DNA of 64,000 nucleotides from a virus (taxonomy: Duplodnaviria > Caudoviricetes): IMG/VR virus record IMGVR_UViG_3300017716_001697, positions 256,001 to 320,000 of that record. One strand, 5' to 3'. Position numbers and translations under genes: made by a program. Positions 17 to 57,670 of this stretch are shown here, one piece after another. Within the stretch, counting starts at the first letter, position 1, and the number at the start of each line of letters is the position of its first letter. The notes below the pieces were generated by a model, which was not told the DNA's origin, made no database searches, and worked only from the letters and a program-made list of their open reading frames with translations.

Positions 17-508
17 ATGGCGATCATAGATATATACCACGAGCAGCATAGCGTACCCGATGGGTTAAAACTGTTTAAGCGATCGAAGAGCACTAGTGAG
101 CTTTTAAAGCTGGTCATACATTACCTATCGCAAGGTAGGGCGTTGCGCTGCTGGTGCTGCCAACGTGAAGTCAACGCTGTTATTACTATGCAGGCTAAGA
201 AAGATCCTGCTGTGTTTAATACATTTGCACATATGGATGGTTGTACAGTGGAAAGGTACAGTGTAGATCACATCATCCCTAAGGCCTTTGGTGGTGTTGA
301 CAGGATGGAGAACTACAGGCTTTCATGCATTAAGTGTAATCACACACGCGACATCAATATGTCTGATGCTGAGATCATGTTTCTTTCTAGTAATCAACAT
401 CTATGCAAAGACGGAAAAAAAGTATATAATAACGTAAGGCACAAGATTAGCCCGCATTACTTTAGCACAACGGTTCAGCACTATGATCAGTCACACTACA
501 CATATTAA
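17..508 (+). CDS. HNH endonuclease-domain protein
   Basis: SVDHIIPKAFGG..MENYRLSCIKCNH matches the HNH motif. Confidence 0.65.
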   Translation: MAIIDIYHEQHSVPDGLKLFKRSKSTSELLKLVIHYLSQGRALRCWCCQREVNAVITMQAKKDPAVFNTFAHMDGCTVERYSVDHIIPKAFGGVDRMENYRLSCIKCNHTRDINMSDAEIMFLSSNQHLCKDGKKVYNNVRHKISPHYFSTTVQHYDQSHYTY

Positions 509-16217: not shown

Positions 16218-16375
16218 GATAAACTCCTTAGTGTGTTGCGGTAAGTGTATTGTACTGCGAAACAGTTCCAATGTCAACAACTTTTGCAACTTTATTTTGC
16301 TTTGTTGTTGATGTTGTAGTGTTCTGCATGTATTGATTATATGACGGAATTGTGCTCCAGTCAACAACTATTTCA

Positions 16376-16459
16376 ACTGTTACATCTTGTTACATCTCCG
16401 ACCCTCTGTACAGTCTCGGACCTGTTAATCAGTGGCCTTGATCATGCCTTGCGAGGCTT
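16376..16459 (-). repeat. conserved upstream element shared (inverted) with 21262-21335
   Basis: identical 19-mer tgtaacaagatgtaacagt and 16-mer gatcaaggccactgat, plus a similar gcct..aggc hairpin. Confidence 0.85.
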
Positions 16460-16523
16460 AAAATAAAGGTAGACACAGGAACCGTTCTTCGTTATAATTA
16501 ATACATCGCAACAAGGAACTAAT

Positions 16524-20629: not shown

Positions 20630-20882
20630 CAGTTGACAACTGCATCCAACAGTGCTATAATCATTGTAACACAAAGGCACACATGCAAACCACAAAGATC
20701 AAGAAGAAGGACCAAGAAGGAATGATTAGCTCCTTCTGGGCAATGCTCCAGGAGTTGGAGAATCAGGCAGAGAACACGCTCGACAAGCACTTCGTGGAAA
20801 AATACTACGAGCAGTGGAATCGAATCACAGGCGACAACAAGGTTGCACGTTGGAATCGATAAAGGCAGTTTAACAGATATTA

Positions 20883-20905
20883 GCGGCTAAGGCCGCTTTT
20901 ATTTT
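20883..20905 (+). terminator. Rho-independent terminator
   Basis: agcggc-taag-gccgct + T-rich tail. Confidence 0.7.
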
Positions 20906-21335
20906 GGCCATATAGTTCTCGCATAAGAGCGCGATCCTTCTTATAATCGTTGCCGAGAACTATAGCCTTAGGTGTCGCGATTCGCCGCCTAAAGAATCGC
21001 CTTAACCACAGATCCTCGGAGTTAGGGCACGCACCTAGCTGATAGCGTGCAACCTTGCCGAGGCTAATTTCATGCCACAGCCGTAGGTGTATTACACAGT
21101 GTTTATGAGCTAATTTTAGCAGGTTTAGGCAAAGGTTGCGACGATTCTTTAAGACAGATTCATTAAAGTTCTCGCAACTACTATACCGACGGCTAAGGTT
21201 GCGTGCAATAACTCCGAGACTATGTCGACAAAGGTGATGACAGATTACTCAGCGATCATACAAGCCTCGGCCAGGCGGATCAAGGCCACTGATGAGTAAG
21301 TCCACGAACCGCTGAGTGTAACAAGATGTAACAGT
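20906..21335. ncRNA. candidate ~430-nt highly structured RNA
   Basis: ORF-free; helices 20911-21/20954-64, 21015-24/21209-18, 21045-60/21190-206, 21135-41/21172-78, 20991-99/21142-50. Confidence 0.6.
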
Positions 21336-21413
21336 CTAAATATCGCTTGCCCAATGCTTCATCCTGCCATATAATTACTACATAGCAACACAATAGTAAC
21401 GCAAAGGTACACT

Positions 21414-22025
21414 ATGAAGCACATCACACAAGCAGAAGCTAACACAGCCTGCGCACTCCACGCTAACAACAACACACTGACTGTTGCACAATTGCAACAA
21501 CTGTTGGGCAACGTAAGCGTCACGTTTGCCACAATTGAATACGTTACAGCCGTGCAAACAGCGGCAGCGCACAAGGGCCAGAACATCAAGAAGGTGACGA
21601 AGGCCAATGTTATCCTGTGCAGCAACATCGCAGCGCATACAAGCGTGTACGCTAACATGGTGAAGAAGACTGCCGCTACCATTGCTGACAATGATCAAGC
21701 TGCTGTAGCTGCATTTACACCCCAAGCTAACTACTTTGAGCACACTGACTGCCACAGTATTGTGCAGCACAAGGTGCATACTGACAAGTTTTATTTGTAT
21801 GTAATTTACAACGCCGCATCCAGTATCTACTTGCACAATGGTACCCCTGTTACGAAAGTGGACATTATTCCATTCCTTACACCAAGTGGTGCACGTGACT
21901 TGATGGCTGGTACTGATGTCGTGGAAAACAAGACACATGGTATCAAGCACCGTGTCGCAGTACGCACGATTGCACTCAGCAACATCGTAAGCATCAAGGC
22001 TCGCAAGCAATTTGTAACAGTGTGA
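21414..22025 (+). CDS. hypothetical protein (203 aa)
   Basis: promoter cassette with SD. Confidence 0.7.
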   Translation: MKHITQAEANTACALHANNNTLTVAQLQQLLGNVSVTFATIEYVTAVQTAAAHKGQNIKKVTKANVILCSNIAAHTSVYANMVKKTAATIADNDQAAVAAFTPQANYFEHTDCHSIVQHKVHTDKFYLYVIYNAASSIYLHNGTPVTKVDIIPFLTPSGARDLMAGTDVVENKTHGIKHRVAVRTIALSNIVSIKARKQFVTV

Positions 22026-30455: not shown

Positions 30456-30727
30456 TACTCGTAGATGTTAATTCACCTAAATTTAACTATCCTGCACCGT
30501 GGGATAAATTTGTTAAGGTTGCTGATGCTCTGTGGTCGGAAAGGTTTAGACACGCAGAGTGGCGTGATTTTTTAGATGCGCAGTTACTTGATATGGGTGC
30601 AGTAAATATAATGAATACCTATTACATTGAGTTCAAAGATAGGAGTGATGCCCTTGCGTTCATACTCAAATTTGGTGGCATCTATGAAGATCGTGAATTG
30701 ACACCGGACGACGATGGCAGCGTATAA
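30452..30727 (+). CDS. EEDA-F-L family small protein
   Basis: FKDRSDALAFILKFG. Confidence 0.7.
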   Translation: MILVDVNSPKFNYPAPWDKFVKVADALWSERFRHAEWRDFLDAQLLDMGAVNIMNTYYIEFKDRSDALAFILKFGGIYEDRELTPDDDGSV

Positions 30728-30920
30728 GCACAGCGAGCAATTCACAGTCGTACGCATCCCCGACGATTATGATTTCTACGAAGATGATTCAATGTACGAG
30801 TGGTGCGAAGAGCATGCCGGTGATAGAAGCTATAGTTGGGGATACGATGACAAGCAGGGGATTATCTGGTTTGCCGAATCTATTGTCGCCAACCTGTTTA
30901 AATTAACATTCGGAATATGA
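30714..30920 (+). CDS. EEDA-F-L family small protein
   Basis: FAESIVANLFKLTFG. Confidence 0.65.
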   Translation: MAAYKHSEQFTVVRIPDDYDFYEDDSMYEWCEEHAGDRSYSWGYDDKQGIIWFAESIVANLFKLTFGI

Positions 30921-46150: not shown

Positions 46151-49100
46151 TTACAGGATTGCAGTACCTGGCTCACGCTTTAGCATCTCTGCTTCGGGGG
46201 TCGCAGCATACCAGATACCACCATCCGACGCCTTTGTTATGTTTGTGTACATATCCGAATCCCACCCGTAGCTATCCCACGGCAAGAAATCATATTGCCC
46301 CGGACCGGTTACTCCAGCAGGGTCGACTGCATTCCATACAGTGCTGTTGGAGATAGCAGGTAACTCATTGAATTTTTCAATCCAGACAATATTCGGTACC
46401 AGTGTTAATGGATCTGCGAAACTAGGTACAAGGGCAGTGTGTTCAACAGGCGCTGTACCATTTGTTCCGCGACGTACCAAAGATAACTCCCATGTGTTGG
46501 CCGCAGATTCGGTCTTTGATCTGTACTCAATTCGTTCACCGTTAATCCATATAACGCCCGGTGTCGAGCTAGGACCCGGGTTAGGTAGAATATCTGTAGT
46601 TATAGGATGTGTCAACGGATCGATAAACACAGTAATAATTTCGGTATAATCTGTTCCAGCTGATGGTGCAGGCAAATCAAACATTAATATACCCGAATCT
46701 AATTCAGAATTTCTATAGATATGATTTTGCCCTATGCCTAAATTCTGCCTGTAACTAACAGTCACTGGCAAGAATTCCAGTGTAACAGGGTCAGCAGGAT
46801 TATATATAGGGCTTCCACCTGCAGCGACTATCTGTGCCGCAACCAATGGATCGACATCGGATACGGAATCACCCCACGGTGCATATGGATGCAATATACC
46901 ACCTACATTGTTAACAGGCAGACGTGTATCTACATTAACAACAAAGTCATCTTTAGGGAAACCGTATGCAACTTCTGTACGGTTTGTTCCGTAGTTAAAG
47001 CGCATTATTCCGCCACCATTCCACAACACTAGCGCAACAGGTGTTGATGCCACAGGTGCAAAGAAATATGCTGTATAATTAAGGTCTACTTCATTGTACT
47101 CTACATAATAATCCTTGCCATACAACAATATGTCGGCACCAATTGTAACGCTAACAACACTAGACGGTGTAATGAATGTCTGTGGATTGTTTAAATTGAT
47201 ACTGTTAAAATCAAATGTGTAAGGATACAACTGTGAATAGCCGATCTTAGAAGCATCAAAATTAGTCAACTCTATTGTGTAGACATCCTCTTCTGCTACA
47301 AATTGTTTTGCTAAACATGTATCCCACCAGAATGTATCCCATTGCGAATTTGCTAATGGATCAATACAGTTGACTTCCCACGGTGCAGGTGCATATGGAT
47401 CTACTGTAAGTGAATAATTTTCAGGGCAGACATCCCAGGACACTGCTTCCCAATATCCTACTTCGTTCGGATCTTCGCAGCTAACGTCCCAGTTACCATT
47501 TTCGTAAGGGCCACCAAAATCAGGGCCGAACTGGATGATAGTCTTAAGTTTGAAATCATTATCAAACGCTGTACCTGTTGCAATATCAGAAATAAGGTGA
47601 GTACTCGTGTAATCACGTATTTGTGTATGGTAAGGCTTAGAATCAACAATATAACTCATGATATTGTTAATCTGATCTGGTTGATAGATACGAGATTGTT
47701 TAATCGGTATGTTATTTTCCTTTATGTATATGTAGGAAGACTTGAATGCCCAATTCTGGTTCTTCTGCTCGCTGAAGACATAATTCAACATTGCAAAATA
47801 CAATTCATTCTGGAACACAACATAACTATTAACGAACACTTCTGTTCTAAATGCCTTTAGAAGTTCTCTTAATTCAACCGATAATCCATATACATTATGT
47901 GTTGTATATATCGTATCTAGTAATTTTATAGCAGATGCTTCTATACCGACCTTCAAGAAACTCTGTGTAGCGACATTGGTGTTAAGTTGCACAACTGCAT
48001 ACAACACATATCTTCCATCAGGTGTTCCTTCAATTACTTCGACAATTGCGCCAGTGTTTAGCTTACCGGCATTCAGTGCAGTAGTGGCCTGTGTAAGCGA
48101 TGTGAACACAACAGATGGTGCTACATCGTCGTAACCGAGTTCATACCATGTTGTGTAATCCCAGTATTCGCTTGTTTTAACGCCTGTGTTCCAGTCTGGT
48201 GTCTTGTCCCTGATAGCGATACGTTTTAGCAAATTGTTACCTGCTTGCACAAATATCTTTCTTGCTGCGTAAAGATCCATGAACATACCCTGACGTGGGC
48301 GGTAAGTGATACCGAACTTCTCAGCTTCGCTCAACGATGGATCAGGTACAGGTAACACTTCGCCGTAGAATGCTGATACTGTGTCAATTGCATCATCCCA
48401 CGGTGCTATATCCCATCCGTATATATCCCACGGTAAGTCATGCCCAACAAAGATGCTGTTACTCCACTCTTCAGATGCAGGTAGTACCTTTGTGTATGCA
48501 CAAATACTATCTACCATTTTATTCCAGAATTGATCAGTAATCAACGATGCAGTGTCACCTTCGCGGAATAATTTCCATTGCGAATGCTCTTGGTCGTTAC
48601 GTTCTGCAAGACGATACTTGATCTGAACATTATCACCCTTGTAGGCAAGAATTTCTTGTACATTATAGAACATGTAAGAATTGTTTATTTCGGACTGTTG
48701 TATAGGCGAGAAGAATACAAACTGCTGACTTCTAGGTGCGAATAGCAATCTAGAAACATCAAGGGCAGCTAGTGTACGATTTTCGATAACAGGCTTACTA
48801 ATAGGATTTAACACCCAGAAGTAATAGTTAACTTCGGTTATGTTAGTAAATCTGTTCGAAGATTCTATTCTTACATAGGTAGTCAAACTTCTAGGTGTAC
48901 CAGATCCTGCATATTTTGCAGGTGGAACTGGACTCTTAACCCATTCGTAAATATCTACAGAACTGCCTGGAAACATTTGTCCCCAACGATCGCGACGGTA
49001 CACTAGATTTTGTGTAGGTGTTTCACTACCATCTAAAGCAGCAGGTTGTTCATAATAAGCATATCTCATGCTAGACATATCCCACCATAGTTTACCAACT

Positions 49101-52100
49101 TGTGGTTCACCGAATATAATGTTTTCACTATAAAGACGTGCATCCCCGGTGACATTATATCTTGCAGGATCTTGCAATAACATATATGTGATATTCTGTT
49201 TTGCAGGACCAGGTAAGATTGCCTTAAATGGATCATACACTGGAAGCAATACCAATTCGTTTTCGATTCTGCGCTGGAATACCTGCGCACTACTGAACAA
49301 CGAAGTGTTGATTAATGTTTCTTGCACACGGTATGGTGTGAAGTACATTGGTCCAATGGTATCCCATCCGTAGTCGTATGTGTACGGATAAGCCCAGAAT
49401 TCCTTCACAGTAGGATCCCAGTAAGTAATGTCCCAATAGCCAGGATCTGCTGTAATCCTGACGACTGCCCATTTATTAGCAATATCGTCGACCCATATTA
49501 GATCACCTAAGCCTACATACTTAGGTAACAACGGTTCAATCGGCTGCTCAGTCCAGCGCATTGTCTTGAACAATAGCAAGTCGGTAAAGAATTCAAATAC
49601 CCCGATTTCGTCGGCTTGTATAGGGTCACCAGCTACATTTAATAATTTATAACTGTTATAAGATATCAGTGTAGTAGGATCTGTGTATAATCCGTTATCT
49701 TCGAATCTAACTGCATAGTTTGTTGCAGGATCAACCTTTCCATCAATAACAATCTGCAAACAAATCATATTACCGTAATCAGTTCTACCATCAGACGATG
49801 CTGAAAGTTGTGGTAATATTTCTTGATTTACTACATTCTGATATCCACTTCCTTGGTTCACTACAGCTACAGAGACAATCTGTCCTGCATTAGTAACTGA
49901 TGTAATTTGGAACTTAGCGTCTACATATCCGGGATCATACGAAATTGCCCTGCTTGCGACAATTACATCAGCGGAAGAATACCCCGTGCCTTGATCAACA
50001 ATAGTTACAGAAGTTATATATCCATTATCGTCTACAGTAGGATATAATACAGCACCGTAACCTGTTGCTGTCTGAGTCGCTTGCTCAATGGTTATAATAG
50101 GCGTAATTTCGTATCCTGAGCCGCCATTGGTAATAGTGAATCCTGTGATAACACCGTATTCAATTATTGCTGTAACTTTTGCTGTTTCTGTACACGGCCC
50201 GTCGATAATGATTTCGGGTGTAACGGTATAATAACCACCAGGATTAGTAAGTTCAATAGATGTAAGTATCCCGTCGGTTATCTCTGGATATAATACAGCA
50301 GGTGTCGTAGAAGATCCTGTTATCGTAATCGTAGGTGTGGTTGTGTAACCGCTGCCACCTTCGGTTATAGTAACTTTGTTTATAACCCCATTATTAATGG
50401 TAGATGTAAAAGATGCATCTACAATGGCAGGTACTGGCAATGTTACTACCGGATTTGTGCTATATCCAGCGCCCGGATTAGTGATGCTGACACTTGTTAT
50501 GATACCGCCCACGATGCCAGCAATGCCTGTAGCGGTGATTGCGATAGGTGCGTCGACTACACATGTAGGAGGAATCATAAAATATGATCCTCCGTCTACT
50601 ATATCAACATCAATAAGTTTTCCATCAACTATTACTGCATTCAATACAGCCGGATGATACGTAAATCCACCTACTACAGTAATTACGGGAATTGTTGTAT
50701 AATATCCACCTTGCTCCGTAATAGTAGCAGTGTTAACAACACCATCTTCTGTTGTACATGTCAATGATGCAGGTGTCGTACATGGCCCCGTAATTACCAA
50801 TGATGGTGGTGTTAGATATCCACTTCCGCCATCATCAATAGTGGCCGAAGTAATGACGCCATCAGTAACATATATTGTAATTTGAGCAGATGTTATATTG
50901 CTTCCTACTACAGAAATTGTTGGTGGAATAAAATTACTATATCCGGTACCGCCGTTAACGATAGTTACACCAGTAACAACTCCGTCGGCTGTCGATAAAG
51001 TTACTTCGGCCCGGGTTGTTACTGGTGGCGCAATAGTAAGTATCGGTGCGGAAGTATAGCCGGAACCAGATACAACAATCGTTAAATTACCAACAATGCC
51101 ACCGATTGCTGTTGCAGTTATGACGCCACCAATTAGAGACGGTTTTACCGCAGTTACTGTAGGTGGTACTGTGTATCCAGAACCACCGCTAGCAATGTAT
51201 ATCCCGTTGATAACTCCGCCTGCAATAGTTGCCAATGCAGACGCAGGTGTAGTACATGCGCCGGTAATTGAAATTTCCGGCGCAACTGCATATCCACTGC
51301 CACCGTTTACTATGCTAATACTGGTTACTACGCCATCTGCTATCTCAACAATTGCCGACGCCGGGGTTATACATGCACCAGTAATTTCGACTGTAGGTGC
51401 AACTGCAAATCCACTACCACCATTTACTATGATAAAATTAGTAATGATACCGTCTGTTATATTTGCATTTGCGGACGCATCACTAGGTGGAATGATGTCA
51501 AGACGACTACGAGTTTCACGATCGGTTAGCAGTAACAAATCAGATGCAGTTTGTGCCACTCTCCATGTATTAGCAAGGTACGGTGCTGATTTTATATTCA
51601 CCATCTTATAGACATCCCAGTCTTCTGTGAATGTCTTAGCAACCCATACTGTGTCATTTTCTGCAGGATTGAATAATCTTGTGCCCCACAATGTTTGTGT
51701 CTGGATAGGGTCAAATGATGTCCATGTGACGTCATTGAAATTCACATATCCTGCGTTTGGCATAGAATATTCTATGTTGGTCGTAGTCGGGAATTCCAAC
51801 GAATATGCTGGATCATTTGGTCTAACAATCCATTTTGCCACATCATCGACATCAATGTCGACTACATTATCAAGCTTCTCGTCTCTAGCTATCTGGCCTT
51901 GCCATACGGCATACAATCTGTCTAACTGGTGTAGATCTACAGTTGATTCAACAGTAACATTAGGTGCCGATAGATATCCATATCCTTTGTCTGTCATATC
52001 TACACGCGAAATTTTGCCAAGCGCATCTAATACTGCGAATGCTTTTGCAGGACGTAGCGGACCAGTCAGACCCGGATCTGTAGGATCAGCATCGGGAAGA

Positions 52101-55100
52101 GAAATTGCAATGCGCGGAACACTTGTATATCTGTTCTGTGCATTTACTATATTAACTTCTCTTACAAATCCTATATTAGACGGAATAAAATTCAAACGTG
52201 CAACAATAACTTCACCGGAATTCTGTTCAGGTGTTAACACGAACTCAGTAGAAACCTGTTCTATTGTGTTACCTAAATCAGATAATTTAAGTGCCCATTC
52301 TTCGTACACTTCAATTGTTTCGTTATCCTGCACCTTTGTTGATCTAAATAACTTATCAAATGCTTGGCGCGTACCCTTCTGTCTGATAGCACCTTGATAG
52401 AACAAATACTGAACGTCATTAGACACCTGTAGATTATCTAGATAGCTCTTGCTTTCATATCCAATAAGGTGCTGTCCTAACGCTTCTAGGCTTGGATTAT
52501 CTAACAACACATCGGGATCATAGAAAAATCTCATCGAATCTACAATGGTGTTGAAGTTAGGCACCAATTCGTTATCTAAGATTAAATAACCGGGCGCTTC
52601 TTTCTTACCGAACCACGCATTGCTTCTGGCGCCAGTAAATTTTAGACGTTGTTGTCTTGCACGTAATAGTGGATCATAAACAATATCGTTGAAACTGGTC
52701 GTGTTATCAAATATCAACACATGTTCTGTTTCGGCTGCACTTACTTGTAGGAAGTATATTCCGCCAGCCTGCAAATCAGCCGGAGAAACTGCAATATACA
52801 TGTTATCTCTATCAGTAACCGTGCTATTAGGCGGGATAGCAATACCGTATTTGTCTAAGATACTGTAGACACCATTAGCAATAGTTTCTACATCGTTAGG
52901 GTAGCCGCGCTCAACAACAAGCATGGCGTTATTTGCCGCTGGGCTAAGTTGGATACTCGAATCTGGCATCCAGTTGGTGTTTATCCAGAATAAGAACTGT
53001 TTGGCTGAATACAACCAGTCGCTAATTTGATTTGTGTCTATACTTACATCAGTGAATTGCCAACCCTGCGACTCTAGATATGCACCCCAACCGATAAGGA
53101 AATCAAATACATCTTGTGGAGTATCTAATATTGTGCCATAAGGTATGGTATGAGATGTGACTTCCGAAATTGGTCTGTATATAACAGACGAGCCGCCGAT
53201 TGTCGGTAATGCCCGCAATTTTTGCCAGTTGTCTATGTTAAACTTGCCTGCAACAATCGTACCTATGCTGGTATAATATACACCATTGTATCTAACAATT
53301 TCGCCCGGTGTATATGTTTCGCCGAGTGTGTATATATGGAATTCAGCAGGAGTTCCACCGATAGTTATATCAATGATCTGAGCATTTGACCTGTCTAAAA
53401 TTGTGAATTCAGAATTCAACAAATCATATCCGTATACAACAAATTTGCCCTCGGTGCTAACCCTAATAATGACACCACTATATGCGTAAGTCTTTATAGG
53501 TTGACCTTTATGCAAGATTGTCTGGAAATTGTTTGTAGGCACTAGCAGACTAGTTGTGGTCGCTGTTGGCGATACAGATTCTATGTATGTAGATACTGTA
53601 TCTTTATTTGTGAATCCAGCAAATTTATTAGCAAGATTTACATCCAAAGTACGAACCTTGTTACCAAATACGGTAGAAATATCTTGTCCCAGGAATAACA
53701 ATCTATCGCTAATCCAGCGTTGGTATCCAAAGCGAACTGCCGGAGTACCATCAACGGATTCGGCATGCACTACTTGAGTTGCATTCTTTGGGCGCATCCA
53801 TGCAAAGAATGGATCACTATCTGTGAATGTATCATTCTGCACATATTGCCAATTGTTGTTGGACATGACTGGTCCGTAGACACCCGGTATATCAATTAAG
53901 CCAGGCGATAAATCAGTGCCGATTGTGTCGAATAGTAATTCGCCGAATGGGCCCGGCTTCATTAGGTACAAGAATTCTTGCACAGAGAATGCATAACCGG
54001 ATGTAGACATCCATGCTTGCTCAACCGGAGCACCATCACCATACACCCACGGATTATCAAATCCGTCAAACGGTGCATACATGTTACCGGACATTGCGAC
54101 ATTAAATATTGTCGGTACAGGTATAATATTACCCATTGTATCAACAGGCATAACTGTTGATAGGCCAGGTCGTGCCCACATTTCTTGCACTTGTGGCAAT
54201 AATGTTTCAGGATCAAAAATAGCCGTTGGCCCTTGTCTAATCATACCCAATTCTAAATCAGCCCATAATGCTGTATTAGTAGATGACCAATTTGTGCCAT
54301 ATTCCGCAACCCACCACACTGGCTGAGAGCTGAACCCTAGCATTTCCCATGGGCGTGTATTAGGGTAAATGGTGTCATAGTAATACTGGAAAATACCTTT
54401 CCAATTACCGGGTAAATTAAGTTTTGTGCCGCCGGGGGTTACTGCTTCAGCATAATTATATAGCTTCCATAATTGTGGCGAATTTGTTGGTAAATCAGCA
54501 CTTGCGTACAGCCAATCGTTAACATGATAGTTCGCTTTATTACTTGCTGTCCACTTGTTTAGATAAGACTGCGTTATGTCTAAAAATTCTGCACGAGAAT
54601 ATCTTGTCTGTCTAAAGTAACCAGACTTAACATCTTCAAGACGCAATGGCAAATGATATTCATTTCTGAATCTGTATTGCAATAAATTGTAGATTCGCTT
54701 TTCTAATTCAAGCAACAACTGATCGCGGTAATCGCCGTAAGCAATGGTCTTAGAACCATCATGCCCAATAATTACATTCGTTGGGATTGTGTAAGATGTA
54801 TCTAATTCTATACGTGGGATATACACACTATATGCACCAACCTTGGTAGGTGTAGATGGAACATAAGCAGGTATATAGGCAGGCACTGGGTTTGTGTAAA
54901 GTGCCACAAACATATTCTTACCTATCAACGATGCATCAAATTTAATTTCTATAGCAAGGTTGGTCGATATAATTTCGTAATCGACGCCGATTGTTAGTAT
55001 TCTCTCATGTCCGGAAATATCGTAGATATACAGTGCCGAACGTGGATTATCTAAATCTAAATATGTATCTAGTGTCACAAGTTGGCTGACCGGAACAACA

Positions 55101-57670
55101 TGTGTCTCTGTTGCAAACGGTGTGCCATTGGCAATCATATACGAATATGCAAATGCATTCGAGAATTCTTTAGATATGTTTATCGTCTTGATAATCGCAT
55201 CTACCCACGCACTAATCACAATTGTATTATTGTGATACTGTACTGGATTGAATTCTTGATTAATCAGCTGCAATGCAGTCTGCAAATATTTGTTTTTAAA
55301 TTTAGTGTACTCAGACTGACTGAATCTAATGCCGGCAATGACATCTAAATTATCATCAGACGAAACTAACATCGACTTCAGTGTCGGTGCAACGTTCTGC
55401 AAAATAAACGATCCCACTGATCTATTCTTTGTGGTGTCTCTATAGTTGTTTGTTCCACCAAATGCTACACCAGAGAAATATGCCTGATTATAGATTATAG
55501 ATGAAAATTGTTCTATTAAATTACTCGCACTAATTTCACCAACCTCTTGTTGAATAGGGTTAGCTTCTAGTTGCTGTGGTATAGCTGAATATCCCGGCGC
55601 GGCTGGGTCAAGCATATCTCTTGTATATGTCTGAATTTCGACAACAGGTGCAACTGCCTGCGGTACAGCAAGCAAGTTAGTAAGATAGGTTTCTAAGTCT
55701 ACATATAGGTCGTTGTTTATACCGACGATATAGTAACCATCTAGTTGATGTGTTTCGTTTTTAACTTCTACACCATTAACACTCACAATGATATCGGGTG
55801 CAGCAGGATAGTTGTACGGAACAACACTTAATCTAAATTGATATTCTACGCCGTAACCTACAGCAAATTTATCTATAACACGTTGTTTGCTTAATGCAAC
55901 GCGGCTATAATCAACCGGTACTGTTGTACCTGCTTGTACAGGAGTAAATAAATTCCAATCATTATACATAACAGGTGTATAGTGGAACATGTAATAGTAG
56001 TATCCGTCGATTGGCACACGGGCTGAACTGTACACATATCTATCTGTTATTAGGTCATTCTGAAACATGATATCAGACGACTGGCCTAAAGAAGTGTACA
56101 CTATAGGAAATCTTAGTACAGGATCTACAGTGGCCCCTGGTTGTGGATTCACCTTATAAGAGAATATTTTGCTACCAGCAAATGTGCTGAGTGGGTATGT
56201 AGTCACGTCGTCAAGTGGTACACCATTATGATCATATAACTGAAATAGTGGTGGTTGGTTTACTGCTACCTTATCATTAGCTGCCTGCACCCATTCGTTT
56301 ATATCATAATACCATGTTTCACCACGTTGTGCACCATCCCACGGTGCATCTTCGGAGATAAGAATAATATCACCATCAACAATAGGTGGCGGCACTGGTA
56401 TAAACATAACCGTATCGAAGTCAGGGTCAATACGCACCTGATAAATTGTCTGGTTAGAAATATACGGAGTCACGATAGGTTCGCCGTCCCAATGCAATAG
56501 ATCCCATTGTTCGTTGATCGCTCTGTCCCATGGTATCAAGTCAGTCGTAACCAGTGTTGTGTCATTCATAAACACAACTAACTGACCGTCAGTGAATTCT
56601 ACCTGAAGCTCTTCATTTACTGTATCACGCAATCTTAGTTGATAATCTAGCATCTGTAGCGGAATGCCGAATTCATTATCGCGGAATCCAAATGTCACAT
56701 CGGCCCTGAACTGTGTGCCTGAATTGTATAAGAACAAATCAGCAGAGAATTGAATAATCGGTCTTAATGCTCGAGTAGCATTTGTCGGAAATGCAATTCC
56801 CGTTGCTGCAACAGTTGCATTTATTGCATCTATGTGGACCCATTTGTTTGTGCGTGACCATGCATTTCTGTCAATAGCACCACGTTCGATTGTTATGTAA
56901 TCACAATTTCCGGGCTGTGGTTGTACGTCCCACGTTAATGTATCCCAGTTGGTATTCTGTATAACCCTACCATTAGACAACTGTGTAGTTCCATCCCATG
57001 GTAGGAATTCTAGTACAGTCCCAGGTGTGTAATCAGGGTAACGTGGCACTAGTCTAATGCCTATGCCTACACCGATGTTTTCTACAATCAATGGATCAGG
57101 GTACAATGTGGACCCGACGAATTGAATTGTTAGACCTGTAGTGAATGTTAGGTTGGCAGGCAGTGCGCCAGGGATAGATGAAGTGTTGAATGACTGCGCA
57201 CCCAATATCATAGATGTTATTTGTGTATCGGAAATGCCTGTTACATTTATAGCCGCTAGTCCCTGGAACACCCAGTAGTAATTGTGATAGTTAATAAACA
57301 TATCAAAATCGATAGGTGGCGCCCAGCTGTAATATTCAGATTCAAAAAGTCTATCTTGATTTAATGTGTTTCCACCGTAATAATTAATCCTGTTTAACAG
57401 GTCATCATAGAAGAATATATTTGATTTTGTATTATCTGTATTGCGTGAGAAGCCAGTGGCTTCTAATTGCCACCAGGTACGGTCTTTCGACGGTTCTGGT
57501 AAGTAGAAATCACTGACAGGATTATATAATCCCGGCGTGCGTCTGCCGATATACCCACTTAACTGGTCACCATCTTTCTTAGAGAATACTTGGTCGAACG
57601 TCGCATCGAAGAACTTCTTCTCCGTAACCGTTTGGAAGACGGCGGGTAATTTCTTAATAAACTGAGTCAT
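46151..57670 (-). CDS. 3839-aa virion/baseplate-associated structural protein
   Basis: very long intact ORF after the gp6-like gene; GGSGY..P repeats and PWD/WD motifs. Confidence 0.75.
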   Translation of the reverse strand: MTQFIKKLPAVFQTVTEKKFFDATFDQVFSKKDGDQLSGYIGRRTPGLYNPVSDFYLPEPSKDRTWWQLEATGFSRNTDNTKSNIFFYDDLLNRINYYGGNTLNQDRLFESEYYSWAPPIDFDMFINYHNYYWVFQGLAAINVTGISDTQITSMILGAQSFNTSSIPGALPANLTFTTGLTIQFVGSTLYPDPLIVENIGVGIGIRLVPRYPDYTPGTVLEFLPWDGTTQLSNGRVIQNTNWDTLTWDVQPQPGNCDYITIERGAIDRNAWSRTNKWVHIDAINATVAATGIAFPTNATRALRPIIQFSADLFLYNSGTQFRADVTFGFRDNEFGIPLQMLDYQLRLRDTVNEELQVEFTDGQLVVFMNDTTLVTTDLIPWDRAINEQWDLLHWDGEPIVTPYISNQTIYQVRIDPDFDTVMFIPVPPPIVDGDIILISEDAPWDGAQRGETWYYDINEWVQAANDKVAVNQPPLFQLYDHNGVPLDDVTTYPLSTFAGSKIFSYKVNPQPGATVDPVLRFPIVYTSLGQSSDIMFQNDLITDRYVYSSARVPIDGYYYYMFHYTPVMYNDWNLFTPVQAGTTVPVDYSRVALSKQRVIDKFAVGYGVEYQFRLSVVPYNYPAAPDIIVSVNGVEVKNETHQLDGYYIVGINNDLYVDLETYLTNLLAVPQAVAPVVEIQTYTRDMLDPAAPGYSAIPQQLEANPIQQEVGEISASNLIEQFSSIIYNQAYFSGVAFGGTNNYRDTTKNRSVGSFILQNVAPTLKSMLVSSDDNLDVIAGIRFSQSEYTKFKNKYLQTALQLINQEFNPVQYHNNTIVISAWVDAIIKTINISKEFSNAFAYSYMIANGTPFATETHVVPVSQLVTLDTYLDLDNPRSALYIYDISGHERILTIGVDYEIISTNLAIEIKFDASLIGKNMFVALYTNPVPAYIPAYVPSTPTKVGAYSVYIPRIELDTSYTIPTNVIIGHDGSKTIAYGDYRDQLLLELEKRIYNLLQYRFRNEYHLPLRLEDVKSGYFRQTRYSRAEFLDITQSYLNKWTASNKANYHVNDWLYASADLPTNSPQLWKLYNYAEAVTPGGTKLNLPGNWKGIFQYYYDTIYPNTRPWEMLGFSSQPVWWVAEYGTNWSSTNTALWADLELGMIRQGPTAIFDPETLLPQVQEMWARPGLSTVMPVDTMGNIIPVPTIFNVAMSGNMYAPFDGFDNPWVYGDGAPVEQAWMSTSGYAFSVQEFLYLMKPGPFGELLFDTIGTDLSPGLIDIPGVYGPVMSNNNWQYVQNDTFTDSDPFFAWMRPKNATQVVHAESVDGTPAVRFGYQRWISDRLLFLGQDISTVFGNKVRTLDVNLANKFAGFTNKDTVSTYIESVSPTATTTSLLVPTNNFQTILHKGQPIKTYAYSGVIIRVSTEGKFVVYGYDLLNSEFTILDRSNAQIIDITIGGTPAEFHIYTLGETYTPGEIVRYNGVYYTSIGTIVAGKFNIDNWQKLRALPTIGGSSVIYRPISEVTSHTIPYGTILDTPQDVFDFLIGWGAYLESQGWQFTDVSIDTNQISDWLYSAKQFLFWINTNWMPDSSIQLSPAANNAMLVVERGYPNDVETIANGVYSILDKYGIAIPPNSTVTDRDNMYIAVSPADLQAGGIYFLQVSAAETEHVLIFDNTTSFNDIVYDPLLRARQQRLKFTGARSNAWFGKKEAPGYLILDNELVPNFNTIVDSMRFFYDPDVLLDNPSLEALGQHLIGYESKSYLDNLQVSNDVQYLFYQGAIRQKGTRQAFDKLFRSTKVQDNETIEVYEEWALKLSDLGNTIEQVSTEFVLTPEQNSGEVIVARLNFIPSNIGFVREVNIVNAQNRYTSVPRIAISLPDADPTDPGLTGPLRPAKAFAVLDALGKISRVDMTDKGYGYLSAPNVTVESTVDLHQLDRLYAVWQGQIARDEKLDNVVDIDVDDVAKWIVRPNDPAYSLEFPTTTNIEYSMPNAGYVNFNDVTWTSFDPIQTQTLWGTRLFNPAENDTVWVAKTFTEDWDVYKMVNIKSAPYLANTWRVAQTASDLLLLTDRETRSRLDIIPPSDASANANITDGIITNFIIVNGGSGFAVAPTVEITGACITPASAIVEIADGVVTSISIVNGGSGYAVAPEISITGACTTPASALATIAGGVINGIYIASGGSGYTVPPTVTAVKPSLIGGVITATAIGGIVGNLTIVVSGSGYTSAPILTIAPPVTTRAEVTLSTADGVVTGVTIVNGGTGYSNFIPPTISVVGSNITSAQITIYVTDGVITSATIDDGGSGYLTPPSLVITGPCTTPASLTCTTEDGVVNTATITEQGGYYTTIPVITVVGGFTYHPAVLNAVIVDGKLIDVDIVDGGSYFMIPPTCVVDAPIAITATGIAGIVGGIITSVSITNPGAGYSTNPVVTLPVPAIVDASFTSTINNGVINKVTITEGGSGYTTTPTITITGSSTTPAVLYPEITDGILTSIELTNPGGYYTVTPEIIIDGPCTETAKVTAIIEYGVITGFTITNGGSGYEITPIITIEQATQTATGYGAVLYPTVDDNGYITSVTIVDQGTGYSSADVIVASRAISYDPGYVDAKFQITSVTNAGQIVSVAVVNQGSGYQNVVNQEILPQLSASSDGRTDYGNMICLQIVIDGKVDPATNYAVRFEDNGLYTDPTTLISYNSYKLLNVAGDPIQADEIGVFEFFTDLLLFKTMRWTEQPIEPLLPKYVGLGDLIWVDDIANKWAVVRITADPGYWDITYWDPTVKEFWAYPYTYDYGWDTIGPMYFTPYRVQETLINTSLFSSAQVFQRRIENELVLLPVYDPFKAILPGPAKQNITYMLLQDPARYNVTGDARLYSENIIFGEPQVGKLWWDMSSMRYAYYEQPAALDGSETPTQNLVYRRDRWGQMFPGSSVDIYEWVKSPVPPAKYAGSGTPRSLTTYVRIESSNRFTNITEVNYYFWVLNPISKPVIENRTLAALDVSRLLFAPRSQQFVFFSPIQQSEINNSYMFYNVQEILAYKGDNVQIKYRLAERNDQEHSQWKLFREGDTASLITDQFWNKMVDSICAYTKVLPASEEWSNSIFVGHDLPWDIYGWDIAPWDDAIDTVSAFYGEVLPVPDPSLSEAEKFGITYRPRQGMFMDLYAARKIFVQAGNNLLKRIAIRDKTPDWNTGVKTSEYWDYTTWYELGYDDVAPSVVFTSLTQATTALNAGKLNTGAIVEVIEGTPDGRYVLYAVVQLNTNVATQSFLKVGIEASAIKLLDTIYTTHNVYGLSVELRELLKAFRTEVFVNSYVVFQNELYFAMLNYVFSEQKNQNWAFKSSYIYIKENNIPIKQSRIYQPDQINNIMSYIVDSKPYHTQIRDYTSTHLISDIATGTAFDNDFKLKTIIQFGPDFGGPYENGNWDVSCEDPNEVGYWEAVSWDVCPENYSLTVDPYAPAPWEVNCIDPLANSQWDTFWWDTCLAKQFVAEEDVYTIELTNFDASKIGYSQLYPYTFDFNSINLNNPQTFITPSSVVSVTIGADILLYGKDYYVEYNEVDLNYTAYFFAPVASTPVALVLWNGGGIMRFNYGTNRTEVAYGFPKDDFVVNVDTRLPVNNVGGILHPYAPWGDSVSDVDPLVAAQIVAAGGSPIYNPADPVTLEFLPVTVSYRQNLGIGQNHIYRNSELDSGILMFDLPAPSAGTDYTEIITVFIDPLTHPITTDILPNPGPSSTPGVIWINGERIEYRSKTESAANTWELSLVRRGTNGTAPVEHTALVPSFADPLTLVPNIVWIEKFNELPAISNSTVWNAVDPAGVTGPGQYDFLPWDSYGWDSDMYTNITKASDGGIWYAATPEAEMLKREPGTAIL

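Follow-up and report, generated by a model that had tools for sequence, protein, structure and literature searches.

An island of inverted CGAG words between two gene cassettes of a freshwater jumbo phage, possibly a mosaic of DNA-level cis-elements

What is a gene-free stretch of about 430 nt that pairs with itself and lies between two small phage gene cassettes: a structured RNA, or DNA that is read as DNA? The question arises at positions 20906-21335 of the window, as we call the whole 64,000-nt stretch analyzed here (bases 256001-320000 of a 364,576-bp virus record). The 364.6-kb source genome is that of a freshwater jumbo phage with direct terminal repeats and 41.6% G+C. The original prediction had proposed a single large ncRNA, held by long-range helices and capable of a conformational switch.

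Genome setting

The element sits within a run of small plus-strand genes, almost every one preceded by a near-consensus sigma-70 promoter; the surrounding 6 kb hold 20 promoter-like sites where 7.6 are expected. It forms a 496-nt desert with no ORF of at least 45 aa, among the largest in the genome without a tRNA gene. Its immediate surroundings are as follows.

20683-20862, plus strand: upstream 59-aa ORF
20882-20905, plus strand: intrinsic terminator of the 59-aa gene cassette, a 6-bp G+C stem (20882-20897) followed by TTTTATTTT (T-run)
21347-21375, plus strand: sigma-70-like promoter of the 203-aa gene (TTGCCC, 17 nt, TATAAT)
21414-22025, plus strand: 203-aa gene

As predicted, the stretch is non-coding and directly follows a terminator (20882-20897 plus the T-run), which is identical or near-identical in two relatives (loci L005 and L007). 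A scan confined to sigma-70-like promoters found none on the plus strand between 20863 and 21346, and no terminator was found at the 3' end of the element. A weak promoter on the minus strand at 21283-21255 (TTGATC/TTGATG, 17 nt, TATGAT) is kept in L007. The G+C content of the element, 44-50%, lies above the genome mean and not below that of the neighboring genes.

The neighboring proteins have no Pfam or PHROG function. No Pfam or PHROG family includes the 203-aa protein, which has >130 metagenomic homologues. AlphaFold modeled it with confidence (pLDDT 90, pTM 0.83); Foldseek returned no significant match to it, and the best VIA-align score (Z 6.2, to Sm/Hfq/WYL-like small barrels) lies under the tool's meaningful level.

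Elsewhere in the genome ARAGORN identified 45 tRNA genes (C1 3810-56365, 211746, 215318), including one that it labels Pyl (anticodon CUA), and a tmRNA gene of the permuted type (30533-30892). At 46151-57670 of the window, on the minus strand, lies a 3839-aa ORF with an adjacent 1321-aa ORF, both without a Pfam match.

Coding potential and searches of known families

The longest ORF within the stretch is at most 37 aa. A long open frame on the minus strand was rejected as a gene, having no start codon and 5 of about 6 differences from L011 non-synonymous, and so was a decayed gene, as six-frame tblastn recovered only homologues of the element itself. Neither the genome nor the fetched loci hold a gene with translated similarity to the stretch, and a protein search for copies of the element with the minus-frame pseudo-ORF gave no candidate.

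The original prediction had left the class of its RNA unassigned, and the Rfam check by cmscan likewise matched no family. Rfam 15 gave nothing at or above the gathering threshold in the 64-kb window, chance-level short matches only at 20800-21450 with E up to 10, and no match in L005, L007 or L011 with E up to 1. DNA and protein searches of a phage GenBank collection found no match. Exact-pattern scans of viral contigs returned a single chance match, in the high-G+C phage L004, and a scan of metagenome sequence yielded L011. A profile of the conserved core described below, searched with nhmmer, found no further copies in the genome or the fetched loci.

Several individual signals were considered and set aside. 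A sigma-54 promoter has TGGC..TT but lacks the -12 GC; the hammerhead word CTGATGAG at 21286 has no credible stem II and no cmscan match; a lambda boxA (CGCTCTTA at 20925, minus strand) is not retained in relatives, nor is a MotA box at 21352 in L005 or L007. The word TAGTTCTCGCAA is no more frequent outside the element than in shuffled sequence, which argues against a genome-wide promoter or signal. The inverted-repeat units described below have no common internal sequence, unlike a MITE, and their arms around the 32-nt spacers are inverted and not direct, unlike a CRISPR array, the sole CRISPR-DR match (E = 8) falling at the terminator.

Self-pairing of the stretch

Every pairing listed in the original prediction was found. 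There is a perfect 11-bp inverted repeat (20911-20921/20954-20964), a perfect 10-bp helix (CTCGGAGTTA/TAACTCCGAG, 21015/21209), a helix of about 16 bp with one bulge and one G-T (21045-60/21190-206), a hairpin in the place of the inner domain, a 10-bp crossing pair (TAAAGAATCG/CGATTCTTTA, 20990/21142), and alternative partners of 21049-21065 at 21132 and 21263. RNAfold gave the 430-nt plus strand -143.1 kcal/mol (z = -4.74; 0 of 100 shuffles as good) and the minus strand -142.7 kcal/mol (z = -3.34). Exact 8-mers recur in inverted orientation 14 times against 3.3 expected, and directly 9 times against 1.0. The self-pairing of the stretch is real and far above chance. The inner hairpin persists in the homologues:

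21134-21179: local hairpin, TTGCGA/TCGCAA and CTTTAA/TTAAAG, with 13-15 of 18 pairs kept in all homologues

In L011 a 10-nt insertion falls inside its loop.

Conservation among relatives of the neighboring gene

We fetched contigs for ten of the >130 metagenomic relatives of the 203-aa protein. The element adjoins this gene only in the closest of them, L005/L006 (94% protein identity) and L007 (91%). In L008 (86%) a barely recognizable remnant with part of the core persists, in L011 the core lies between unrelated genes, and the remaining loci, among them close relatives L009, L012-L018 and L022, do not have the element. Identities to L005 and L007 divide the stretch as follows.

20950-21177 (to 21180), no strand assigned: core, 83-85% identical, with blocks of 95-100%
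Third codon positions of both flanking genes: 55-80% identical
20911-20949: 36-59% identical, plus a 96-nt indel
21181-21260: 39-65% identical

Positions 20991-21164 are moreover 96.5% identical to L011, where the flanking genes differ. Because the core exceeds the third codon positions and reaches this identity in L011, about 230 nt appear to be under some constraint or to have been recently exchanged, while the remainder seems fluid. The large element of the original prediction holds up to this extent: the stretch is gene-free and some 230 nt of it are conserved slightly above the level of synonymous sites, but a single helix-bound ncRNA of that size is not supported.

Ahead of the 203-aa gene lies a hypervariable slot. 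It is occupied by HNH genes in L007 and L008 and by other small genes in L012-L018, and L009 and L019 fill it with other non-coding DNA. The free-standing 189-aa HNH_3 endonuclease gene of L007 and L008 (2353-2922 in each, minus strand in L008) has its place after the -10 box of the 203-aa gene and before that gene's ribosome-binding site; the window does not have it. Comparable slots in L009 (1900-2950) and L011 (470-1320) hold 0.85-1.05 kb of differing non-coding DNA with words of its own, GAGCACGG/CCGTGCTC palindromes and ACATGTRTATGTATAGGTA, the latter common to both.

Such turnover would suit functionless debris, in which leftover promoters, terminators and decayed cassettes pile up at a recombination hot spot and the repeats arise by illegitimate recombination. 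Promoter-like remnants (TATAATCGTTG at 20942, GCCATATAGT at 20907) and an inverted duplication specific to the window fit this explanation too. We nonetheless consider it quite unlikely: debris would not be expected to keep a core above synonymous sites or at 96.5% identity in a different gene context, nor to retain a motif and its spacing across unalignable lineages, and the stretch has no translated similarity to any gene.

Long-range helices and a window-specific inverted duplication

The two long-range helices have one origin. Reverse-complemented, 21190-21225 equals 21008-21060 with 18 nt missing:

21185-21228: inverted partial duplicate of 21008-21060 (minus 18 nt), specific to the window

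This duplicate supplies the 3' strands of the helices 21015/21209 and 21045-60/21190-206, and L005, L007 and L011 carry other sequence in its place. When the minimum-energy fold of the window was projected onto the homologue alignments, relatives kept 9-10 of 20 pairs in one long-range helix and 3-5 of 12 in another; by the same count the local hairpins of L005 and L007 kept 8-9 of 9, 13-15 of 18 and 9 of 10. One metagenome contig has a skipped form that lacks 21178-21278, and contigs from four runs also showed variants. Parts of the element are listed in 21 public runs from 17 studies, with no RNA run among those listed. Since their 3' strands come from an inverted partial copy of the phage's own core, the long-range helices are lineage-specific, and they are by-products of one rearrangement in a single phage lineage.

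The conformational switch proposed for this stretch loses its basis in the same comparison, as the partner at 21190-21218 is specific to the window and L005 and L007 carry a changed version of the one at 21263; nor does the stretch lie in the leader of the gene, whose promoter (21347-21375) is downstream of the entire element. More generally, a strong folding z-score can mislead where a recent inverted duplication has made long "helices" that relatives do not keep, a caution for RNA discovery in phage genomes.

A conserved fold and the case for an RNA

The relatives outdo shuffled sequence only modestly in folding, and alike on the two strands, with z-scores of -2.2 and -2.3 in L007 and -2.9 and -2.4 in L005. 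An RNAalifold consensus of the core scored -1.94 (plus) and -2.15 (minus) against column-shuffled alignments, with low power at four homologues. Among these, 1 of 55 consensus pairs has a double change, and the closing helix 20954-61/21167-74 carries one compensatory change from A-U to G-C, in L011. One-sided changes in consensus pairs are G-U-compatible 13 times on the plus strand and 3 times on the minus strand, a count that is biased since the fold was fitted to the plus strand; an unbiased count of mismatches in the inverted-repeat units gave 7 G-T against 6 A-C. The alignments of four homologues lend no positive support to a common large fold or to a particular strand.

A structured ncRNA, or a chain of RNA hairpin modules, is possible at this locus but doubtful. 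Transcription would either read through the upstream terminator on the plus strand or start at the weak promoter of the minus strand (21283-21255), and the RNA would comprise hairpins with CUCG/CGAG stems and loops of about 32 nt, acting as protein-recognized or RNase III-type modules, together with the conserved core 20950-21177 closed by CGAGAACT/AGTTCTCG. The plus-strand z of -4.74, the local hairpins that homologues keep, the compensatory change in the closing helix, the position of the L011 insertion in a loop, the minus-strand promoter retained in L007 and the conservation of the core above synonymous sites are all consistent with an RNA, as are arms that vary between units while their complementarity stays. 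Against it, Rfam is without a match even at E 10, a strong terminator stands immediately upstream while the plus strand has neither a promoter nor a 3' terminator of the element's own, the first hairpin is broken in L005, and direct repeats are enriched as much as inverted ones.

The narrower claim of a single ncRNA of about 430 nt finds no support. Its long-range helices are not kept in homologues, its consensus fold is marginal (z only about -2) and alike on both strands, and its stems show no strand bias of G-U over A-C (7 against 6), all of which count against the broader RNA proposal too. No plus-strand promoter stands between the terminator and the promoter of the next gene, and the 3' quarter (21258-21346) is a promoter-upstream module that also stands before another promoter.

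Repeated CGAG words and a spaced inverted-repeat unit

The dominant repeated word of the element is (C)CGAG-R-M-Y-T, for example CCGAGAACTAT. Of its strict form, [GC]CGAG[AG][ACT][CT]T, the element has 4 copies within about 350 nt; the 364.6-kb genome has 36, where 78 are expected, which makes the motif about 100-fold enriched in the element. Seven copies alternate in orientation between 20914 and 21270; four fit the strict pattern, and those at 21012, 21056 and 21213 are looser, read from the sequence and the pairing output:

20914, minus strand: CGAG word
20953, plus strand: CGAG word
21012, minus strand: CGAG word (looser)
21056, plus strand: CGAG word (looser)
21167, minus strand: CGAG word
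21213, plus strand: CGAG word (looser)
21262, minus strand: CGAG word
20904-20971, no strand assigned: terminator-linked inverted-repeat unit, TGGCCAT, arm TATAGTTCTCG (20911-20921), 32-nt spacer, arm CGAGAACTATA (20954-20964)

The unit may also be written TGGCCATATAGTTCTCG-N32-CGAGAACTATA. Copies of the word number 4-5 in L005 and L007, 10 in L019, 3 in L010 and 2 each in L008 and L011; it persists in the slots of L019, L010 and L008, which cannot be aligned, and is rare or absent in loci without a non-coding gap. Direct 8-mers are enriched significantly in every homologue (p < 0.005), and also in the analogous non-coding slots of L008, L009, L011 and L019, whereas inverted 8-mers are not enriched in L007. 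Direct repeats are enriched across homologues at least as consistently as inverted ones.

The words are paired at a fixed distance. Minus-plus pairs lie 39-40 bp apart, center to center, in six units from five lineages: one in the window (20914/20953), one each in L007, L005 and L010, and two in L019. From CTCG to CGAG the spacers measure 31-33 nt and are unrelated in sequence between units. The arms differ from unit to unit yet are mostly complementary, up to 16 bp in L019b; in L005 the complementarity is broken while the word is retained on both arms, so that the arms swap between motif variants. The composite of terminator, TGGCCAY, CTCG, N31-33 and CGAG occurs in four sequence contexts, one of them common to three close relatives, in the window, L005, L007, L010 and L019. 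Its terminator stems vary, and its upstream gene is the 59-aa gene in the window, the 203-aa gene in L010 and another gene in L019. Genome-wide, perfect CTCG/CGAG stems of at least 10 bp number two, that of this unit and one at 254720-255990.

The latter belongs to a second island (genome 254720-255990, L025), a gene-free 1.27 kb with three CTCG/CGAG inverted pairs that ends 10 bases before the window. Among its many repeats are a perfect 10-bp AGCCTCGCAA/TTGCGAGGCT and a 12-mer, TGCCGAGGCTAA, that the element also contains. Directly after it comes an HNH endonuclease gene (window 17-508), its HNH match passing the Pfam cut-off and HNH_5 falling just below.

Repeats of this kind bring a replication origin to mind. 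A phage origin or similar DNA-processing site would consist of iteron-like initiator words and hairpin- or cruciform-forming pairs, and would occupy an untranscribed spacer adjoining a conserved early gene. The repeats that speak for a DNA-level element serve this explanation equally, with seven copies of (C)CGAG-R-M-Y-T where three or more are looked for; L019 adds a 17-mer, GCGAGGTTTATGGTGAC, in two exact copies (2448, 2713) with an inverted variant, CCGAGAACTATGGTGAC, and in L011 an alternating purine-pyrimidine tract adjoins the core. An origin is nevertheless improbable in our estimate, weakened as it is by three observations: the stretch has no A+T-rich part where unwinding could start (44-50% G+C throughout against 41.6% in the genome), cumulative GC skew does not turn at genome 277 kb, though skew follows gene orientation in this genome, and close relatives L009, L012-L018 and L022 do without the element. 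No initiator gene is recognizable among the neighbors by Pfam or PHROG either.

A promoter-upstream module and recombination joints

The 3' end of the element forms a module of its own:

21258-21346, plus strand: promoter-upstream module, AAGCCTCGG..GATCAAGGCCACTGAT..TGTAACAAGATGTAACAG, with TGTAACA twice

TGTAACAAGATGTAACAG lies about 12 nt upstream of the -35 box. A paralogue stands at 16375-16470 of the window, on the minus strand, ahead of another promoter; both copies, about 90 nt long, begin with AAGCCTCGC/G and finish with TGTAACAAGATGTAACAG. TGTAACA repeats also occur upstream of a TTGCCC-type promoter in L007, L008 and L019 (twice). Because relatives carry the module before different promoters, it looks like a mobile activator-site cassette. 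In L019 (1553-1830) the whole layout is compact, with a terminator, TGGCCAC unit, CGAG pair, TGTAACA module and TTGCCC promoter ahead of a different gene.

Breakpoints between relatives fall at copies of TTCTCGCA. The 96-nt indel between the window and L005/L007 has AGTTCTCGCA copies at its bounds, and homology to L011, L005 and L007 stops right after TTCTCGCAA at 21177, where the skipped metagenome form begins too. The words thus coincide with recombination joints.

A mosaic island of DNA-level cis-elements

Conservation thus extends to a 230-nt core together with a vocabulary of short inverted-repeat words in a fixed geometry. The layout of terminator, TGGCCA unit, further CGAG pairs, TGTAACA module and TTGCCC promoter recurs in relatives that are otherwise unalignable, with the first CGAG pair welded to the terminator through TGGCCAY and the last word copy opening the TGTAACA module. 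Our preferred reading, to which we give somewhat less than an even chance, is a mosaic island of DNA-level cis-elements in which inverted repeats for protein recognition lie in an untranscribed spacer. The spacer would separate the terminator of one early cassette from the activator-type promoter of the next, and the island would be assembled from short recognition words in both orientations. One or more DNA-binding proteins of phage or host may read words of the CGAGAACTAT type, in double-stranded or extruded DNA; binding might set the activity or timing of the neighboring promoter or mark a locus of replication or recombination, and recombination between the repeated words would keep reshuffling the island.

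This DNA-level reading is favored by the roughly 100-fold enrichment of a motif that is kept in non-alignable slots, and by pairs whose spacing is fixed while the spacer sequence is free. Direct 8-mers are enriched everywhere and inverted ones not in L007, and the L005 arms swap motif variants without complementarity. The stems have no strand bias, and z-scores in relatives run only from -2.2 to -2.9 on both strands. The absence of an internal plus-strand promoter behind a strong upstream terminator argues in the same direction, as do the 3' module with its paralogue, the breakpoints at words and the second island with its three CTCG/CGAG inverted pairs.

We hold it no more firmly because complementary arms and a fixed loop length suit a folded RNA or DNA module equally. 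The complementarity of the outer arms, which vary from unit to unit, extends past the motif, and this fits hairpins of either kind just as well as dimer sites; the local hairpins are well kept, with 13 against 3 G-U-compatible changes by the biased count; and the G+C content is not below that of the neighboring genes. The 203-aa neighbor, for its part, has a confident model but no clear fold match that would mark it as the binding protein. Half-sites about 40 bp apart are also uncommon among known regulators.

These same points leave room for a bolder proposal, which we think unlikely. Here the CTCG-N31-33-CGAG units, each about 60 nt long, would be hairpin modules of a family not described before, belonging to a freshwater jumbo phage clade and read in folded form (RNA or extruded DNA) by a dedicated protein, and the 230-nt core between them would be a new RNA. 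Stem core and loop length would be conserved while arm and loop sequence are free, the first unit being welded to the terminator via TGGCCAY. Such modules might serve as a recombination or processing signal at cassette boundaries, analogous to attC or RNase III sites.

If, as in the DNA-level reading, proteins recognize the CGAG words and the fixed 32-nt unit, these would represent an unstudied layer of control or recombination in the hypervariable early region of large freshwater phages, and would offer a concrete sequence as bait for the binding protein.

Comparison with known systems

Integron attC sites (59-base elements) close a cassette on its 3' side with an imperfect inverted repeat of about 60 bp, whose two ends carry conserved cores and whose center is free. 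The unit resembles them in all these respects, but its cores are CTCG and CGAG, not RYYYAAC and GTTRRRY, and only two canonical units occur genome-wide. As neither the attC core sequences nor a recombinase is present (tyrosine and serine recombinases, PF00589 and PF00239, have no match in the genome), we dismissed an integron-like site.

The element is like the ROOL (RF03087) and GOLLD (RF01998) RNAs in its size of several hundred nt, its phage location and its dense self-complementarity. It is unlike them in matching neither model nor any other Rfam family, in showing no covarying conserved fold among four homologues and no sigma-70-like promoter of its own, and in long-range helices that are lineage-specific.

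At iteron origins and operator arrays (lambda ori, P1 oriR/incA, P4 ori/crr) a short word is repeated, direct and inverted, in non-coding DNA beside an early gene. The element shares the multiple copies of one word in both orientations beside an early gene; it differs from iteron origins in having no A+T-rich unwinding element, recognizable initiator or regular phasing, and its inverted pairs lie about 40 bp apart.

The PeSLs, mobile regulatory cassettes of T4-type phages (Arbiol et al. 2010, PMC2839356; Comeau et al. 2014, PMC4122927), offer a further comparison. We know of no PeSL described with a sevenfold CGAG-R-M-Y-T word, a CTCG-N32-CGAG unit or a conserved 230-nt core. The region here has what marks a PeSL-type cassette region, a repeated promoter or leader sequence and slot content that differs among relatives, and we find it modestly interesting as what may be an undescribed variant of phage regulatory or boundary DNA. 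A PeSL is one unit of promoter plus stem-loop of about 50-60 bp, against a gene-free island of 450 bp in our phage. PeSL motifs are reported to coincide with recombination joints likewise (PMC2839356, PMC4122927). In both systems the early region consists of small genes that each have a strong sigma-70 promoter and a stem-loop terminator to themselves. Both also place conserved promoter and terminator motifs around variable content, and close relatives swap genes at these repeated non-coding motifs.
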